A program made the position numbers and the translations under genes. From positions 1-8,228 of the IMG/VR virus record IMGVR_UViG_2675903352_000011: DNA of 8,228 bases. One strand, written 5' to 3'. The DNA comes from a virus (lineage: Duplodnaviria > Heunggongvirae > Uroviricota > Caudoviricetes). Below, piece by piece: positions 1,940 to 8,053 of this stretch (position 1 is the stretch's first letter; every line of letters starts with the position of its first letter). The notes beneath the pieces are model-generated. The model was not told the DNA's origin and did not search any database. It saw only the letters and a program-made list of their open reading frames with translations.

Positions 1940-2317
1940 ATGCGTGATATTCAGATGGTTCTTGAGCGTTGGGGGGCATGGGCGGCTAATAATCATGAAG
2001 ATGTGACCTGGTCGTCCATTGCCGCCGGTTTTAAGGGATTAATTCCTTCAAAAGTAAGATCTCGTCCGCAATGCTGTGACGATGACGCGATGATCATTTG
2101 TGAATGTATGGCTCGCCTGAAAAAAAACAACAGCGATTTACATGATTTATTGGTGGACTATTATGTCGGCGGCATGACTTTTATGGCGCTTGCACGTAAG
2201 CATGGGCGATCTGATTGTTGGGTTGGCAGGATGCTCCAGAAAGCTGAGGGCGTAGTGGAGGGCATGCTGATGGTGTTGGATCTCCGATTGGAGATGGATG
2301 CTGATTGTTCGAAATAA
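1940..2317 (+). CDS. quuD: Late-gene antiterminator Q (phage 82 / DLP12 QuuD-like)
   Basis: Translation [24 protein letters not shown]...[18 protein letters not shown]... matches my memory of the short Q antiterminator of DLP12-type prophages. ATG at 1940 with GGAG about 9 nt upstream (the ORF track starts at an upstream TTG at 1925). Followed by a short promoter-terminator region as expected for PR'-tR'. Confidence 0.8.
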
Positions 2318-2359
2318 TTAAAGGAAAAGTTGCTGTCTGATTTTCATTAGTCTAACATT

Positions 2360-2400
2360 TTAAATGTTGGAATCGCAACGTAGTTATTATCATATAACAG
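2360..2400 (+). promoter_or_regulatory. Candidate late promoter PR' with Q-utilisation region (approximate)
   Basis: Inference from position directly downstream of Q and upstream of a strong terminator. Weak sigma70-like elements: ttggaa at 2367-2372 and tatcat at 2388-2393 (spacing is a short 15 nt); tcatat at 2390-2395 is an alternative. Exact hexamers and TSS cannot be fixed by eye. Confidence 0.3.
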
Positions 2401-2415
2401 CTTGTTTCCTGATTT

Positions 2416-2446
2416 AGCCAGCCTCCCCAAAGGCTGGTTTTTTCTA
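2416..2446 (+). terminator. Rho-independent terminator (tR'-like)
   Basis: Seen in sequence: agccagcc / tccccaaa / ggctgg hairpin followed by ttttttc. Lies about 100 nt downstream of the Q stop. On the minus strand the hairpin is not followed by a U-tract, so it is mainly a + strand terminator. Confidence 0.65.
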
Positions 2447-2471
2447 ATAAGTATCATTTCGGGTGGGGATT

Positions 2472-2996
2472 TTATTGTTTAACCCATAATAGTTCATTGA
2501 CATTGAATCCCAACTTTTGAGCGGTACGCACATAGTCTGCTTTTACATTATCTGGAATAGTTTGGGTCCTTGCCAGAATCCATAGGTATTCTCTGTTCGG
2601 ACCACTGACAAGAGCATACTTATACTCATCATCCAGTTTGATTACATTATAGCCACCATAGAAGGGGCCAAAAAACGAAACTTTCAACGCTGCAGTTTTA
2701 GTATCTCCAGTAAAGTATGCTTTACCTTCGCTCTCGCTCCATTTGTTTTTCGTTGGATCGTATCCACGGTTAAGTACGCGAATCCCTCCGTCGTTCCGTT
2801 TTTCATAAGTAGCGCTGACCTGTTCCAGACCACGTTCGAACCAGTTCTCGAGGCGAGCTATTTCATACCATTTTCCGAGGTAGCGGTTGGCGTCAAAATT
2901 TGTAATCGGCTGCACACCTTTAGGTGGTGTCGGGGCCTTACATGCTATAAGAGTGAAAGAGAGTGCAATGCCAGTCAACACAGGCCATAACTTCAT
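2472..2996 (-). CDS. blc: Bacterial lipocalin (Blc-like) outer-membrane lipoprotein
   Basis: 174-aa translation with signal peptide and lipobox (MKLWPVLTGIALSFTLIAC, Cys followed by K at +2, not an Asp Lol-avoidance signal). Strong resemblance to E. coli Blc motifs: NFDANRYLGKWYEIARLENWFERGLEQVSATY, KAYFTGD..AALKVSFFGPFYGGYNVI, YLWILART. AGGA Shine-Dalgarno 6-8 nt upstream of the ATG on the minus strand. Opposite orientation to the late operon. Confidence 0.85.
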   Translation of the reverse strand: MKLWPVLTGIALSFTLIACKAPTPPKGVQPITNFDANRYLGKWYEIARLENWFERGLEQVSATYEKRNDGGIRVLNRGYDPTKNKWSESEGKAYFTGDTKTAALKVSFFGPFYGGYNVIKLDDEYKYALVSGPNREYLWILARTQTIPDNVKADYVRTAQKLGFNVNELLWVKQ

Positions 2997-3188
2997 AATA
3001 AATCCTGTACTTTTGATAGTTGAGAGTAAGTATGAAAGATAGATGAGTACGACCGATCACTTAAAGAACTTTCCTACTATATTAGGAATAGTCAATAACA
3101 GAAAAATTGTCAGTGATGAAGCCAGAAAGGCAATTTAGTCCGTGCACTACAAAGTTTATGTGTTAATGAATTAGTCAAGGGGGAGGAA

Positions 3189-4148
3189 ATGATAAAAAAA
3201 CCTGTGATTGGGATCAGCGGTTGTTTGGGCGGTTCTGCTGTTCGTTTTGATGGTGGTCACAAAAGAGATGACTTTTTAATGGACAAATTAGTGGAATGGG
3301 TAACATTCAGACCAGTATGTCCGGAAATGGCTATAGGGCTGCCAGTTCCGCGTCCTGCTCTACGACTTGTGCGCTCGAAGCAAGGAAATATACGGATGTG
3401 TTTCAGCCACGACCAGAATGAGGATGTGACAGAGAGAATGACAGAGTTTAGTCGTTCTTATATGGACAAATTAAAGGATGTATCGGGGTTTGTGGTTTGT
3501 GCTAAATCTCCCAGCTGTGGCATGGAGCGCGTGCGTGTCTATGATGAAAATGGTAATCGAGGTCGTAAAGATGGAGTGGGACTATTTACGAGCACTTTGA
3601 TGGAAAAGTTTTCCTGGCTACCGGTTGAAGAGGATGGGCGATTACATGATCCAGTGCTTCGTGAGAATTTTATTGAAAGAGTTTTTGCTTTGCATGAGCT
3701 CAATCACCTTTACAAGGAGAAATTATCAAGAAGAGAGTTATTAGCTTTTCATAGTCGTTATAAGCTTCAGTTGTTGGCGCATAGCCAGGCAGGCTATAAA
3801 GATATGGGACCATTTGTGGCTGCAATACACGAGTGGGCGGACCTTGAATCATACTTTGAGGTGTATCGTGATAATCTGATGGCGATTCTCAGAAAACCAG
3901 CATCACGTAAAAATCACACGAATGTGCTGATGCATATACAGGGGTATTTTAGTAATTACTTAAGTACACGCCAGCGTAAAGAGTTGAGCGAGGTTATACT
4001 TAACTATCGCTTTGGCACATTGCCTCTTCTTGCGCCGTTGACTCTGCTGAAGCATTATCTGGGTGAGTATCCTAATGATTACTTGCTTACACAGAATTAC
4101 TTCGATCCCTATCCGGAAGAACTGGCTCTAAGACTGATGGTGAATTAA
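3189..4148 (+). CDS. DUF523-DUF1722 fusion protein (TudS-like, putative [4Fe-4S] thiouracil/thiouridine desulfidase family)
   Basis: 319 aa. N-terminal PVIGISGCLGGSAVRFDGGHKRD is a DUF523-type motif. Cysteines at about positions 12, 44 and 104 fit the three-Cys ligand pattern I recall for TudS-type DUF523 proteins. The C-terminal half (AFHSRYKLQLLAHSQAGYKDMG...) resembles DUF1722. Strong RBS gggggagg about 5 nt upstream of the ATG. Confidence 0.7.
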   Translation: MIKKPVIGISGCLGGSAVRFDGGHKRDDFLMDKLVEWVTFRPVCPEMAIGLPVPRPALRLVRSKQGNIRMCFSHDQNEDVTERMTEFSRSYMDKLKDVSGFVVCAKSPSCGMERVRVYDENGNRGRKDGVGLFTSTLMEKFSWLPVEEDGRLHDPVLRENFIERVFALHELNHLYKEKLSRRELLAFHSRYKLQLLAHSQAGYKDMGPFVAAIHEWADLESYFEVYRDNLMAILRKPASRKNHTNVLMHIQGYFSNYLSTRQRKELSEVILNYRFGTLPLLAPLTLLKHYLGEYPNDYLLTQNYFDPYPEELALRLMVN

Positions 4149-4545
4149 CTGTATGCGATATCATCTGAAAGTGATGAGTTCCTGTATGCAGGATATTTAC
4201 AATCGTAAAAACTACGCTATGATGCTCATAGTGTCAGTTTTTATAAAAATCCTGTTCACGCTAAAGAAAACATTGAGATGCAATTTAATGTTGGTAAACA
4301 TACCAGCCCCAAAAGATTTTATTCAATCTGTTTTTATATGAAGATATTTCAAGTGAATATTAAGAGCATATAATATTATTATTGCACGCAGCTATTATAA
4401 TATAACAGATTAGTTTAATGATTTGTTTTTTGTGAGTTAAACACATGGTTTTATAGTTGTGATGCAATGAGATTTTCCTTATTGTTGAACTGGCGAATAT
4501 TGATTTTCCACCTATACTTACCTGGTGTAACCCCAATGATATCAG

Positions 4546-5268
4546 GTGGATAATATGCCATACATATGTTCTATCATTTTGGTGTTGAACTCGTTTGGTG
4601 TCCGAATTGGTAAAGAAGATATTTTGTTTAAAAAAGGAAATGCTGTTCTCATTGAATACAATTTAAAAGATCTTTTTTCGTCAAATACAGATCATCTAAT
4701 GATCGTAGATGTTGAGGAGAAAACAGTTAATGATTTCTTTAAAAACTACACACTCTCACCTTTTTCTGTAAGAAGGTTTTATCCGTCATACTTTATAGTA
4801 GAATGTGAAGATTTTTCATTGTTAAAGAACTTGGTTGCATGCTTGAATTGTGATAGCAAAACCGTGGATGTAGTTAGAAATCAAATATCACTTGCATGTC
4901 TTGCTGTCTTATCTTCAGAGAAAATAGTGCAAAGTTTTTTGTTCGGAAGTCTTAATAGCTTAGGTTGTAAAGTTAAGGCTATTATTCACTCGGATATCTC
5001 AGCGTCATGGAGACTTTGTGATATATCTTCAAGATTATATATGAGCGAGAGTTTGTTAAAAAGAAAATTAAAAGATGAAGGATTATCGTTTAGTAAATTA
5101 ATTCTTGAAGAACGAATGATGATGGCGCAAAGATTATTGATCTACAGTAACCATACTGTCGGCAAGGTGGCGGGAATATGCGGGTATGACAATGCATCAT
5201 ATTTTGTAAGTGTTTTTAGAGGATATTTTGGTGTGCCTCCGCACCAATATTTATCAAGATTTTCTTAG
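4546..5268 (+). CDS. AraC-family transcriptional regulator (AppY / YdeO / PatE-like prophage regulator)
   Basis: 240 aa. C-terminal AraC-type HTH signature (SESLLKRKLKDEGLSFSKLILEERMMMAQRLLIYSNHTVGKVAGICGYDNASYFVSVFRGYFGVPPHQY). N-terminus MDNMPYICSIILVLNSFG... resembles the AppY-like subgroup. Very AT-rich gene and upstream region. Start could be M1 or M4. Confidence 0.8.
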   Translation: MDNMPYICSIILVLNSFGVRIGKEDILFKKGNAVLIEYNLKDLFSSNTDHLMIVDVEEKTVNDFFKNYTLSPFSVRRFYPSYFIVECEDFSLLKNLVACLNCDSKTVDVVRNQISLACLAVLSSEKIVQSFLFGSLNSLGCKVKAIIHSDISASWRLCDISSRLYMSESLLKRKLKDEGLSFSKLILEERMMMAQRLLIYSNHTVGKVAGICGYDNASYFVSVFRGYFGVPPHQYLSRFS

Positions 5269-5336: not shown

Positions 5337-5369
5337 ACGCCAGAATAATTGCTGGCGTTTTTCTTTTTG
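5337..5369 (+). terminator. Rho-independent terminator downstream of the AraC-family gene
   Basis: Seen in sequence: acgccag / aataattg / ctggcg hairpin followed by tttttctttttg. Confidence 0.6.
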
Positions 5370-5458
5370 AATAGATGTTCGGGCCTTACGCTAATGTAAC
5401 TTCTTTCCTTCTTCGAACCAAACCGTGTACACCATCCGTTATCTGCGGAGGTGAGGCT

Positions 5459-5674
5459 ATGAAATCCATGGATAAGTTAACAACGGGCATCGCCTACAGC
5501 ACCTCTGCAGGCAGTGCTGGCTACTGGTTTTTACAGTTGCTCGATAAAGTCACGCCCTCACAGTGGGCGGCAATAGGTGTATTGGGTAGTCTGGTATTTG
5601 GCATGCTGACGTATCTGACAAACCTTTATTTCAAGATTAAAGAAGACAGGCGTAAGGTTGCGAGAAGAGAGTAA
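5459..5674 (+). CDS. essD: Class II holin / pinholin (S21, EssD-like) with dual-start motif
   Basis: 71 aa: [71 protein letters not shown]. Near-identical to my memory of phage 21 S / DLP12 EssD. Met-Lys-Ser-Met dual start is typical of the antiholin/holin pair. Two TM segments and a charged C-terminal tail. ggaggtgagg Shine-Dalgarno directly upstream. The ORF-track extension to 5375 is rejected. Confidence 0.9.
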
Positions 5675-5678
5675 TCCA

Positions 5679-6410
5679 ATGACTCAAGACTATGAACTGG
5701 TTGTGAAAGGAGTTCGCAATTTTGAGAATAAAGTGGCGGTAACTGTAGCCTTACGGGACAAAAAACACTTTGACGGTGAAATTTTTGACCTGGACATCTC
5801 GCTGGACCGTGTTGAAGGTGCCGCGCTGGAGTTTTATGAGGCAGCAGCCAGAATGAGCGTCAGGCAGGTCCTCCTGGGAGTGGCAGAAAAATTGTCAGAA
5901 AAAGTTGAGTCTTATCTGCAGCATCAGTACTCCATTGAGATTGAAAATTCTGCCAATAAACACGATCGTCCTCATCTTGCGGGTTTTGATAGTGCAGTTA
6001 AAGCCAACACCAGGCGCGCAGGGCAGGAAAAAAACGTCGGGGATGACATAAGTCGTGCGGTGGTTACTGTAGAGTTTCCAGGGCATATGGCATCAAGAGA
6101 GAAAGTCGGGAAAGGTGGTGCTCCTGTGCTGACGAAAAGAATCGGCAGCAAGGTCAGTGTCTGGCTTGATAATGAAGAAATGTTGTCGGTTATGTACAAG
6201 GAAGACTACGACCCGAAAACAACGTTCAGCGACTATGAAGCGAGAGCAAAAAAGTATGCCTTGTTGATAGTTGCCGCGATGCGAGCCGTAAATGAGCGAC
6301 AACGCCACCACGAAAATGGGGTGGCGTTTGTTGCTAAAGCTGTTCAGCAAACTATTGATGGTATGACGACGAAGTTTCTTCAGGAATTAAAATTGTCTCA
6401 GCAAGAGTAA
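5679..6410 (+). CDS. Unknown-function protein (243 aa) inserted between holin and endolysin
   Basis: ATG at 5679, 4 nt after the holin stop, suggesting co-transcription or translational coupling with the late lysis operon. The ORF-track start at 5658 is a TTG inside the holin gene. No family recognised; no obvious TM segments; no nuclease, NTPase or HTH motif I can identify by eye. Confidence 0.6.
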   Translation: MTQDYELVVKGVRNFENKVAVTVALRDKKHFDGEIFDLDISLDRVEGAALEFYEAAARMSVRQVLLGVAEKLSEKVESYLQHQYSIEIENSANKHDRPHLAGFDSAVKANTRRAGQEKNVGDDISRAVVTVEFPGHMASREKVGKGGAPVLTKRIGSKVSVWLDNEEMLSVMYKEDYDPKTTFSDYEARAKKYALLIVAAMRAVNERQRHHENGVAFVAKAVQQTIDGMTTKFLQELKLSQQE

Positions 6411-6633
6411 CGCATGATTCGGCAATCAATTTGTTCATTTCGTCTAAAACTTCCTGCGGGGTTTCCAGGGATTCGGGTAATTTTATTGATGAAAAAGTGT
6501 TAGCTGATTTAGTAAGCAAATCTTTAATAATTGCTTTTTTCTCATCTGGTAAAGCGTTAACTAGGAGTATGACAACCTGTCTGATGGCCAGAATATCAGC
6601 AAAAGCTTTTTTAGATAAATAAGTATCGCTCAT
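6352..6633 (-). CDS. Unknown-function small protein (93 aa), convergent to and 3'-overlapping the 243-aa gene
   Basis: ATG (minus) at 6633 with AAGGA Shine-Dalgarno about 4-5 nt upstream. Translation MSDTYLSKKAFADILAIRQVVILLVNALPDEKKAIIKDLL... is helical and charged, not antisense junk. Very AT-rich. Last ~19 codons overlap the 3' end of the + strand 243-aa gene (6352-6410). Confidence 0.5.
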   Translation of the reverse strand: MSDTYLSKKAFADILAIRQVVILLVNALPDEKKAIIKDLLTKSANTFSSIKLPESLETPQEVLDEMNKLIAESCVTLAETILIPEETSSSYHQ

Positions 6634-6759
6634 ATGTTGTCCTTACTGTTTGTTCTGTGATCTTCACATTGTCAGTATTACCCCTGCGAGGAACTACCTG
6701 CCGGGCTGAGTACTAAACATATCCAGGGTTCAGGAACCGATAAATCCTGATAAATATCC

Positions 6760-7293
6760 ATGAACGTAAAAATCAAATACGGCCTGTCAGCTGCCGTTCT
6801 GGCGCTGATTGCTGCAGGCGCGTCTGCTCCTCAAATACTTGACCAGTTTCTGGATGAAAAAGAAGGTAACCACACAACGGCATACCGTGATGGTTCTGGC
6901 ATATGGACCATCTGTCGTGGTGCCACAATGGTGGATGGTAAGCCCGTCATACCGGGAATGAAGCTGTCGAAGGAAAAATGCGACCAGGTTAACGCTATTG
7001 AACGTGATAAGGCGCTGGCATGGGTGGATCGCAATATAAAAGTACCACTGACCGAACCACAAAAAGCAGGTATTGCGTCATTTTGTCCCTATAACATTGG
7101 CCCCGGTAAGTGTTTCCCGTCGACGTTTTATAAGCGGCTGAATGCCGGTGATCGTAAAGGCGCATGCGAGGCGATTCGCTGGTGGATTAAGGACGGTGGC
7201 CGTGATTGCCGCATTCGTTCAAATAACTGTTACGGTCAGGTTATTCGTCGTGACCAGGAGAGTGCGCTGGTGTGCTGGGGGATCGACAGATAA
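6760..7293 (+). CDS. rrrD: SAR endolysin (T4-lysozyme-like muramidase, RrrD / R21-like)
   Basis: 177 aa. N-terminal signal-anchor-release domain YGLSAAVLALIAAGASAP (Gly/Ala-rich, weakly hydrophobic). Catalytic E...D...T spacing matches T4 lysozyme (E-9-D-6-T in EGNHTTAYRDGSGIWT). Closely matches my memory of DLP12 RrrD. Pairing with a pinholin is the established S21/R21 arrangement. Confidence 0.9.
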   Translation: MNVKIKYGLSAAVLALIAAGASAPQILDQFLDEKEGNHTTAYRDGSGIWTICRGATMVDGKPVIPGMKLSKEKCDQVNAIERDKALAWVDRNIKVPLTEPQKAGIASFCPYNIGPGKCFPSTFYKRLNAGDRKGACEAIRWWIKDGGRDCRIRSNNCYGQVIRRDQESALVCWGIDR

Positions 7294-7588: not shown

Positions 7589-8053
7589 ATGAACCGGATT
7601 CTGTATGGCGTGATTATTGTCCTGCTGATGGTCTGTAGTGCTCTGTGGCTGGCAACAGATCATTACCGCGATAACGCCATTACCTACAAAACACAACGCG
7701 ATGACAATGCCAGAGAGCTGAAACTGGCAGAGGCGATCATTACTGATATGCAGGTGCGCCAGCGTGACGTTGCTGCACTCGATGCAAAATATTCAAAGGA
7801 ATTAGCTGATGCGAAAGCTGAAAATGATGCTCTGCGTGATGATATTGCCGCTGGTCGTCGTCGGTTGCGCATCAGAGCAGTCTGTCCAGCCGTGCGTGAA
7901 GCCACCGCCTCCTCCGGCGTGGATGATGCAACCAGCCCCCGACTGGCAGACACCGCTGAACGGGATTATTTCACCCTCAGAGACCGATTGATGACGATGC
8001 AGAAGCAACTGGAAGGGGCACAGCTATACATTCGTGAGCAATGCCTCAGATAA
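7589..8053 (+). CDS. rzpD: Spanin inner-membrane subunit Rz (i-spanin, RzpD-like)
   Basis: 154 aa from ATG 7589: MNRILYGVIIVLLMVCSALWLATDHYRDNAITYKTQRDDNARELKLAEAIITDMQ... N-terminal TM anchor plus coiled-coil periplasmic domain, strong resemblance to lambda/DLP12 Rz. The ORF-track start at 7538 is rejected because it lacks an RBS and overlaps the upstream peptide ORF. Confidence 0.85.
   Translation: MNRILYGVIIVLLMVCSALWLATDHYRDNAITYKTQRDDNARELKLAEAIITDMQVRQRDVAALDAKYSKELADAKAENDALRDDIAAGRRRLRIRAVCPAVREATASSGVDDATSPRLADTAERDYFTLRDRLMTMQKQLEGAQLYIREQCLR
7809..7991 (+). CDS. rzoD: Spanin outer-membrane lipoprotein subunit Rz1 (o-spanin, RzoD-like), embedded in the +1 frame of Rz
   Basis: 60 aa: MRKLKMMLCVMILPLVVVGCASEQSVQPCVKPPPPPAWMMQPAPDWQTPLNGIISPSETD. 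Lipobox LVVVGC and a proline-rich segment. Lies entirely within the Rz coding region in a different frame, the classic Rz/Rz1 arrangement. Confidence 0.85.
   Translation: MRKLKMMLCVMILPLVVVGCASEQSVQPCVKPPPPPAWMMQPAPDWQTPLNGIISPSETD

Follow-up and report, generated by a model that had tools for sequence, protein, structure and literature searches.

What a regulator of the AraC family might be doing between the antiterminator and the lysis genes of a lambdoid prophage is the question raised by a contig of 8228 bp from a draft assembly of Escherichia albertii (BBVQ01000092.1; virus record IMGVR_UViG_2675903352_000011), which was analyzed over its entire length and is referred to here as the window. 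From its predicted genes, the window represents the late-regulatory and lysis region of such a prophage, and the order at the slot in question is that of the late antiterminator Q, a lipocalin, a YbgA-like protein, the AraC-type regulator (4555-5268, plus strand), and the holin. Sequence comparison indicates that the regulator forms a separate, unnamed subfamily, sister to PatE, within the GadX/GadW/YdeO/AppY/PatE/Psr clade, and activation of host acid-resistance genes appears to be the best inference that can be drawn from these relatives. Taken as a joint package, membership in the clade together with activation of the host acid-fitness island is considered fairly probable; within that package, the identity of the regulator is near-certain and the chances for the specific targets are roughly even.

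The family assignment comes from the C-terminal half of the protein, where two Pfam models were matched: HTH_18 (E=3e-16; 59.9 bits against a gathering cut-off of 33.6) at residues 161-237 of a 240-aa open reading frame (ORF), and HTH_AraC (E=6e-11; 42.7 bits against a gathering cut-off of 26.6). The protein is accordingly an AraC/XylS-family regulator with a C-terminal double helix-turn-helix (HTH), its N-terminal, beta-rich regulatory domain comprising residues ~1-135 and its double-HTH DNA-binding domain residues ~136-237. The original prediction, made from the DNA sequence without database searches, had likewise recognized an AraC-type protein with a C-terminal HTH, but its length of 240 aa probably does not hold. 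Translation most likely begins at the ATG at 4555, giving 237 aa, and not at the GTG at 4546 (240 aa), because the GTG falls within a conserved Shine-Dalgarno sequence, AGGTGG (4541-4546, plus strand; 8 nt before the ATG), and because the gene calls, both those of RefSeq and those of the sequence collection, take the ATG. The block TCAGGTGGAT..ATGCCAT around the Shine-Dalgarno sequence and start codon was kept in all four of the loci aligned.

Homology is not confined to the DNA-binding domain. The best NCBIfam match was the YdeO equivalog model, which covered residues 1-231 (E=2e-32; 112.6 bits), followed by GadX, HilD, and HilC, each matching the C-terminal half only; PHROGs assigned the protein to family 1450, which is annotated without function. 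The protein was compared with PatE (ECs_0287 of strain Sakai), AppY, YbcM, YdeO, GadW, GadX, and the presumptive PsrB of strain EDL933, and its homology to YdeO, AppY, GadW, and PatE was found to be full-length, including the N-terminal half; the alignment with the presumptive PsrB likewise ran from end to end. The alignment revealed a start motif, MxxxCS[IV]I, common to the members of the group except GadX and YbcM, and, together with the reach of the YdeO model, this motif confirmed the proposal that the N-terminus is like those of AppY, YdeO, and PatE. Within the group, the first recognition helix, SESLLKRKLKDEG, hardly varies, and it is almost identical in PatE, GadW, AppY, and YdeO. Identity was highest to PatE, with which the protein aligned gap-free over its full length (47% overall; 34% in the N-terminal domain and 65% in the DNA-binding domain); the values for the presumptive PsrB, GadW, AppY, YdeO, GadX, and YbcM were 37, 33, 30, 28, 26, and 18%, respectively.

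A phylogeny of the kind that the original prediction called for was obtained by neighbor-joining of 15 sequences using simple distances and 300 bootstraps, and it upheld the membership of the protein in the AppY/YdeO/GadW/PatE group. The window protein grouped with relatives of 59-86% identity in a clade with 98% bootstrap support, this clade was sister to that of PatE at 95%, and the whole group was split from YbcM at 100%; the deeper nodes were weak (26-60%). A separate subfamily is favored because the equivalog cut-offs for YdeO and GadX were both failed. As a YdeO orthologue, the protein was rejected at 112.6 bits against a cut-off of 348 (NF007407), and as a GadX orthologue at 89.3 bits against a cut-off of 500 (NF007432) with a match to the C-terminal half only. 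Orthology to PatE was likewise rejected, given an identity of 47%, a different position in the prophage, and a separate cluster at 90% identity, as was orthology to Psr at 37% identity.

The predicted fold conforms to this placement. An AlphaFold model built from an alignment of 11 sequences (mean predicted local distance difference test, pLDDT, 85.5; predicted template modeling score, pTM, 0.79) has a beta-rich N-terminal domain whose strands fall within residues 3-83, followed by a helical linker and a seven-helix DNA-binding domain. The last of these superposes on the DNA-binding domain of GadX (3mkl) with a target-normalized template modeling score (TM) of 0.87-0.90 and a root-mean-square deviation (rmsd) of 1.2-1.5 A at 40% identity, and on those of MarA, AraC, AdpA, and SoxS with TM(target) values of 0.6-0.8. 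By sequence, the best solved relatives in the PDB were the GadX DNA-binding domain (3mkl; E=4e-21), CsvR, Rns, and ToxT. The top full-length matches found with Foldseek were Rns, CsvR, and ToxT (E 4e-11 to 4e-7; TM ~0.45); since the TM is ~0.45 and the rmsd 14-15 A, domain packing or size would differ, and the model indicates a domain arrangement distinct from that of these three proteins.

What the regulator might control is suggested by its characterized relatives. [quoted passage not shown] For AppY, gadE, gadY, and nhaR are direct targets of activation, and acid resistance increases (PMC10057817). The loci concerned exist in E. albertii: gadE of the type strain encodes a protein of 94% amino acid identity, the hdeAB-hdeD-gadE loci are present, and the hdeA-hdeD spacer and its K-12 counterpart are 91% identical. 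It is because every characterized relative (PatE, PsrA/B, AppY, YdeO, GadX, and GadW) converges on gadE/hdeA and E. albertii has these loci that activation of host acid resistance is proposed. The original prediction had considered that the closest homologues might prove to be regulators internal to a phage; PatE, Psr, and AppY were found instead as the closest characterized homologues, and each of these acts on host genes.

The mechanism proposed is as follows. In the lysogen, the regulator would be poorly expressed, its AT-rich DNA probably being bound by H-NS. The protein, once produced, would bind AT-rich operators via its two recognition helices, the first being SESLLKRKLKDEG, and would then turn on host promoters in the acid-fitness island (gadE, hdeAB), in line with every characterized member of the clade. 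Where the host is LEE-positive, as E. albertii is, acid resistance would thereby increase and type III secretion would decrease through GadE. A pR'/tR'-like element at 2330-2439 precedes the regulator gene, placing it inside the Q-dependent late transcription unit, and upon induction of the prophage, Q-antiterminated late transcription would also read through the gene.

Features of the DNA around the gene bear on the first and last of these steps. The GC content of the regulator gene is 33.1% (29% at third codon positions, GC3) and that of the 406-bp intergenic or leader spacer upstream of it (4149-4554) is 31.0%, compared to 43-53% in the neighboring genes, 43-44% in the lipocalin and ybgA-like genes among them, and 44.7% in the whole window. 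The AT-richness noted earlier for the gene and its upstream region was thus confirmed, and the base composition is of the sort shown by add-on genes gained through horizontal transfer. A GC content of 31-33% across 4149-5268 is also what would be looked for in an H-NS-silenced gene, and silencing of the locus by H-NS is plausible, being compatible with the AT content.

Alignment of the spacer from four loci revealed conserved blocks at ~4196-4240 and ~4466-4525 separated by a variable middle. Two perfect TATAAT hexamers (4369-4374 and 4396-4401, plus strand) had been singled out in the original prediction, and their positions were exact; their role as promoters was rejected as unsupported. The hexamer occurs six times in the window against 5.4 expected, a count reached in 97 of 200 shuffled sequences, and neither copy passed a two-hexamer promoter scan of the sequence, in which no acceptable -35 element was found for them. 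The copy at 4369-4374, moreover, sits in a segment that is missing from a 76%-identical orthologous locus (L003). The top-scoring promoter-like site was instead TTTACA-16-TATGAT at 4196-4223 (plus strand), which is sigma-70-like with 10/12 matches and which alone among the promoter candidates lies in sequence almost fully conserved across the four aligned loci. It is taken as a predicted candidate for a promoter of the regulator gene's own. This site overlaps a weak hairpin (4214-4234), which could equally end the ybgA-like transcript instead.

Downstream of the gene, the terminator that had been postulated to separate it from the holin was substantiated. It is composed of a perfect, GC-rich 7-bp stem, ACGCCAG/CTGGCGT (5337-5358, plus strand), with an 8-nt loop, followed by TTTTTCTTTTT such that the element extends to 5369; its fold energy is -11.3 kcal/mol (z = -2.95), and it was invariant in five loci despite their diverging flanks. 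As with the stx genes, which occupy this slot too, and in keeping with standard lambdoid architecture, the Q-modified polymerase would be expected to read through this terminator on induction.

The location of the gene between the antiterminator Q (1940-2317, plus strand; PF06530) and the holin of a lambdoid late region established that it is prophage-encoded, as had been predicted. It is flanked by conserved phage genes, is missing or replaced by other cargo in many related phages, deviates in GC content, and is furnished with its own terminator, and is thus an add-on gene, or 'moron,' in the Q-to-holin slot of a lambdoid prophage. Three unrelated types of antiterminator, viz. PF06530 Q, PF03589 Antiterm, and DUF1133, are followed by a gene of this AraC clade in the antiterminator-to-holin slot, as read from window positions 1940-5268 and from two further loci (L015 4162-5987 and L020 5045-6735). 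Such recurrence suggests that the regulator has been repeatedly captured or exchanged at a slot that is also used by stx genes.

This same evidence bears on the possibility that the regulator is internal to the phage, governing lysis timing, late genes, or lysogeny with no targets in the host. The gene belongs to the late operon and directly precedes the lysis cassette, and it has been kept in plaque-forming lambdoid phages, as such a role would lead one to expect. However, the gene is missing from, or replaced by other cargo in, many of the lambdoid phages and prophages that have these Q, holin, and lysozyme genes; the slot holds nmpC in DLP12, and EDL933 prophages also carry other cargo there. 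Because it is absent or replaced in this manner, the regulator is not part of the core phage circuitry. Given also that the gene has the terminator and the foreign GC content usual for add-on genes and that all characterized relatives act on host promoters, a purely phage-internal role is regarded as highly improbable.

The subfamily is widespread. DNA at least 80% identical to the gene region was found in 974 of 5426 complete Escherichia coli genomes (~18%), and at least 99% identical in 318, while megablast matches of at least 80% identity that covered at least 80% of the gene were obtained with 886 of the 5426. The exact protein, recorded from E. albertii, is common to E. albertii and E. 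coli lineages, and its cluster at 90% identity contains 1532 members, all generically named. Isolated phages also encode it: the lambdoid phage IdasGreatGrand has an 86% copy in the same cassette between Q and holin, and the Lambda_ev/1H12 series of isolated phages has a 76%-identical copy. Comparison with three orthologues gave dN/dS ratios (nonsynonymous to synonymous substitution rates) of 0.19-0.25 with dS up to 1.5, and the gene is under purifying selection.

Disrupted copies were encountered as well. In the complete E. albertii sequence CP117654.1, an IS3-family element (insertion sequence, IS) of 1.33 kb is located exactly at the start codon of the regulator (L016 8668-9997), flanked on both sides by the sequence of window positions 4552-4557 (AATATG), and the contig of another strain (L019) breaks at this same point. 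An IS at the start codon could either silence the gene or supply it with an IS-derived promoter. An IS3 element also interrupts the neighboring ybgA-like gene of E. coli CFSAN064036.

It may be asked from such copies whether the gene is simply a silent and functionally irrelevant passenger that is decaying in cryptic prophages. The insertion in CP117654.1 and the contig break at the same point elsewhere, the IS3 element in the adjacent gene, truncated forms of 195 and 133 aa, and very AT-rich DNA that is likely silenced would each be consistent with this. Set against them are a dN/dS of ~0.2 over a dS of up to 1.5, the matches (at least 80% identity over at least 80% of the gene) in 886 complete genomes, the exact protein's occurrence across E. 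albertii and E. coli lineages, and the maintenance of close variants in active phages, such that decay of a mere passenger is thought to be improbable.

The constant company of the gene raises another alternative. The Blc-like lipocalin (2472-2996, minus strand; Pfam Lipocalin_2, E=7e-43) and the YbgA-like protein, a 2-thiouracil desulfurase/DUF523 domain fused to DUF1722 according to Pfam (3189-4148, plus strand), are encoded by the first two genes of a three-gene add-on cassette that travels with the regulator, including in IdasGreatGrand. The lipocalin/ybgA-like/AraC cassette was also found between Q and holin in L003-L006, L008, L016, and L017, and it occupies this slot even where the identity of a prophage's AraC protein falls to 76%. 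The regulator might then be a local one, controlling the divergent lipocalin and the ybgA-like gene of its own cassette, perhaps in response to lipids or fatty acids, with no significant host regulon. AraC-family genes often adjoin their targets, and wherever loci of the window subfamily were examined, the isolated phage included, the order lipocalin(-)/ybgA-like(+)/AraC(+) was the same, even with protein identity as low as 76%. Rns, CsvR, and ToxT are virulence regulators of the AraC family that are inhibited by fatty acids, and it is these fatty-acid-binding proteins that provide the best full-length structural matches to the model.

That full-length likeness, at a TM to Rns and ToxT of only ~0.45, is nonetheless one of overall fold. 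Relatives in the same slot lack the putative partners; the 59%-identical protein P0013 is encoded directly after a PF03589 antiterminator without lipocalin or ybgA, and the same is true of the presumptive PsrB with respect to these two genes. The GC content of the regulator gene, at 33% against 43-44% for its two neighbors, suggests separate origins, and a search for operator-like repeats shared by the lipocalin-ybgA spacer (2997-3188) and the region upstream of the regulator returned only short chance matches of the kind met in AT-rich DNA. A strictly local role is consequently held to be rather unlikely.

A broader view would treat the lipocalin, YbgA-like protein, and AraC-type regulator as one unit in which the regulator senses a lipid or fatty-acid cue linked to the Blc-like lipocalin and is expressed by two routes, its own promoter and Q-antiterminated late transcription, so that induction or gut lipids would reprogram host acid resistance and the LEE/T3SS in E. 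albertii and E. coli. If true, this would constitute a ligand-gated, induction-coupled cassette for rewiring the host, distinct from PatE and Psr; as a whole, the proposal is speculative and is thought improbable. A search of the literature for the lipocalin/ybgA/AraC cassette and for AraC regulators of E. albertii prophages found nothing specific.

With respect to activation of the host acid-fitness island, a number of points weigh against the proposal. The targets are assigned from relatives, the subfamily itself being known from sequence and a model. Identity to PatE is 47% for the whole protein and 34% for the N-terminal domain, low enough that the signal input, and even the range of targets, may differ. 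The tight linkage to the lipocalin and ybgA-like genes allows for a purely local role. The IS in some E. albertii parts the regulator from its Shine-Dalgarno sequence and its own upstream region, and truncated copies of 195 and 133 aa exist in the clusters; together, the insertion and truncations imply that the gene is dispensable.

A further such point concerns the Psr comparison. The presumptive PsrB gene, EDL933_RS10010, was taken from an EDL933 prophage that carries effectors and Pch, and its designation as PsrB was made by position and copy number, not by locus tag. Genes of this type were present at a median of two copies in 726 carrier genomes and at two copies in each of two O157:H7 genomes listed; two copies per O157 genome agrees with the published pair of PsrA and PsrB. 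Reviews place psrA (z1789) in O-island 50 (OI-50)/CP-933N, at potBC. However, tblastn searches of Sakai Sp6 and of CP-933N in the 2014 assembly of EDL933 recovered no AraC-like gene, and a Psr-type gene turned up only elsewhere, in a prophage near 1.905 Mb. This mismatch in the position of psrA may reflect misassembly of prophages in the original EDL933 sequence.

On balance, activation of host acid resistance is retained as the favored role. The original prediction was essentially right except in its start codon and its promoter hexamers, with its functional claim drawn from homology.

The remainder of the window is organized as would befit a lambdoid late region. Upstream of Q, genes for Rem (303-554) and a DUF968/NinG-like protein (1068-1922) are encoded on the plus strand. 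Q is followed by a pR'-like site, TTGCTG-17-TAACAT (2330-2358, plus strand), for which a promoter role is suggested by standard lambdoid architecture, and by a strong tR'-like hairpin (2416-2439, plus strand) identified in the terminator scan, which leads into a T run such that the element extends to 2449. On the opposite strand, the lipocalin gene runs toward this same hairpin with its 3' end, and the hairpin probably serves as both the late terminator tR' and the lipocalin terminator. An Rfam scan of the window produced no hits.

Beyond the regulator, a P21-type class II holin is encoded at 5459-5674 (plus strand; Pfam Phage_holin_2_1). Its start at 5459 lies behind a conserved Shine-Dalgarno sequence, GGAGGTGAGG, and the gene presents the dual-start motif Met-Lys-Ser-Met (MKSM) of a holin/antiholin. 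A start at 5375, which would yield a 99-aa ORF (5375-5674), was rejected as an over-call, given that the gene calls and the conserved Shine-Dalgarno sequence put the start at 5459. There follow, all on the plus strand, genes for a DUF1327 protein of 243 aa (5679-6410), lysozyme (6760-7293), Rz (7589-8053), and Rz1 (7809-7991). The usual YdfR/DUF1327 proteins are only ~100-115 aa in length. The C-terminal two-thirds of the window's DUF1327 protein belongs to a variable insert (5878-6715) together with a convergent ORF of 93 aa (6352-6633) that overlaps the 3' end of the DUF1327 gene and has no Pfam match; the sequence of 5878-6715 differs in other E. albertii and E. coli copies of the prophage region.

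That the prophage-borne AraC-type regulators AppY, PatE, and PsrA/B plug into the gadE acid-resistance hub is already known, as is the lowering of type III secretion by prophage AraC regulators in attaching-effacing pathogens. What is new is an unstudied and unnamed, yet widespread, subfamily that is present in ~18% of complete E. coli genomes, in E. albertii, an emerging LEE-positive pathogen, and in transmissible lambdoid phages of the gut. Were its members to act like their relatives, they would represent a common mobile source of differences among strains in acid survival and virulence-gene expression, and residence in a late-operon slot, as for stx, would couple their expression to prophage induction. 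The subfamily would in this respect extend a known theme and not open a new one.

Among the known systems, PatE (Z0321/ECs_0287), encoded by CP-933H/Sp1 of E. coli O157:H7, is the nearest characterized relative, and it too is the product of an AT-rich prophage add-on gene and of similar size. The two differ in genetic context, as PatE-type genes are found after tail-fiber genes near int/att without lipocalin or ybgA neighbors, whereas the window gene occupies the Q-to-holin slot. PatE and PsrB both bind an hdeA fragment spanning -132 to -45. A protein of E. coli Nissle overexpressed in a preprint under the name PatE (CIW80_12240) was set aside as evidence, its tag matching no gene under the differing RefSeq numbering. 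AppY, encoded by DLP12 of K-12, is also a prophage-borne AraC regulator of similar size, and it has the same N-terminal motif as the window protein. It branches more deeply, with GadW, and its gene is situated at the prophage end beside ompT, after tail-fiber genes. AppY affects RpoS, FlhDC, biofilm formation, and motility as well, none of which can be inferred for the window protein. YdeO, GadX, and GadW all control gadE, but theirs are chromosomal core or island genes, unlike the phage cargo of the window.

With regard to genetic position, the closest parallel is provided by PsrA and PsrB of O157:H7, prophage-borne AraC-like activators of gadE/hdeA that belong to the same clade as the window protein. 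Like the window gene, EDL933_RS10010, which encodes the presumptive PsrB, is flanked by an antiterminator-like gene and a holin in a lambdoid prophage that carries effectors. Its locus differs in having an antiterminator of the DUF1133 type and in being followed by tRNA genes, whereas the window gene is preceded by the lipocalin and ybgA-like genes. A complete E. albertii prophage with an identical regulator carries genes for NleG-family and pentapeptide/SopA-like (NleL-type) effectors at its far end (L016 17834-20714), a cargo that parallels that of the effector-carrying Psr prophages of O157:H7. Finally, Rns, CsvR, and ToxT share with the window protein a two-domain layout in which a helical linker joins a beta-rich N-terminal domain to a double HTH; they differ from it in sequence (identity ~16-21%) and in overall superposition (TM ~0.45; rmsd 14-15 A), and the N-terminal domain of the window protein is the shorter.

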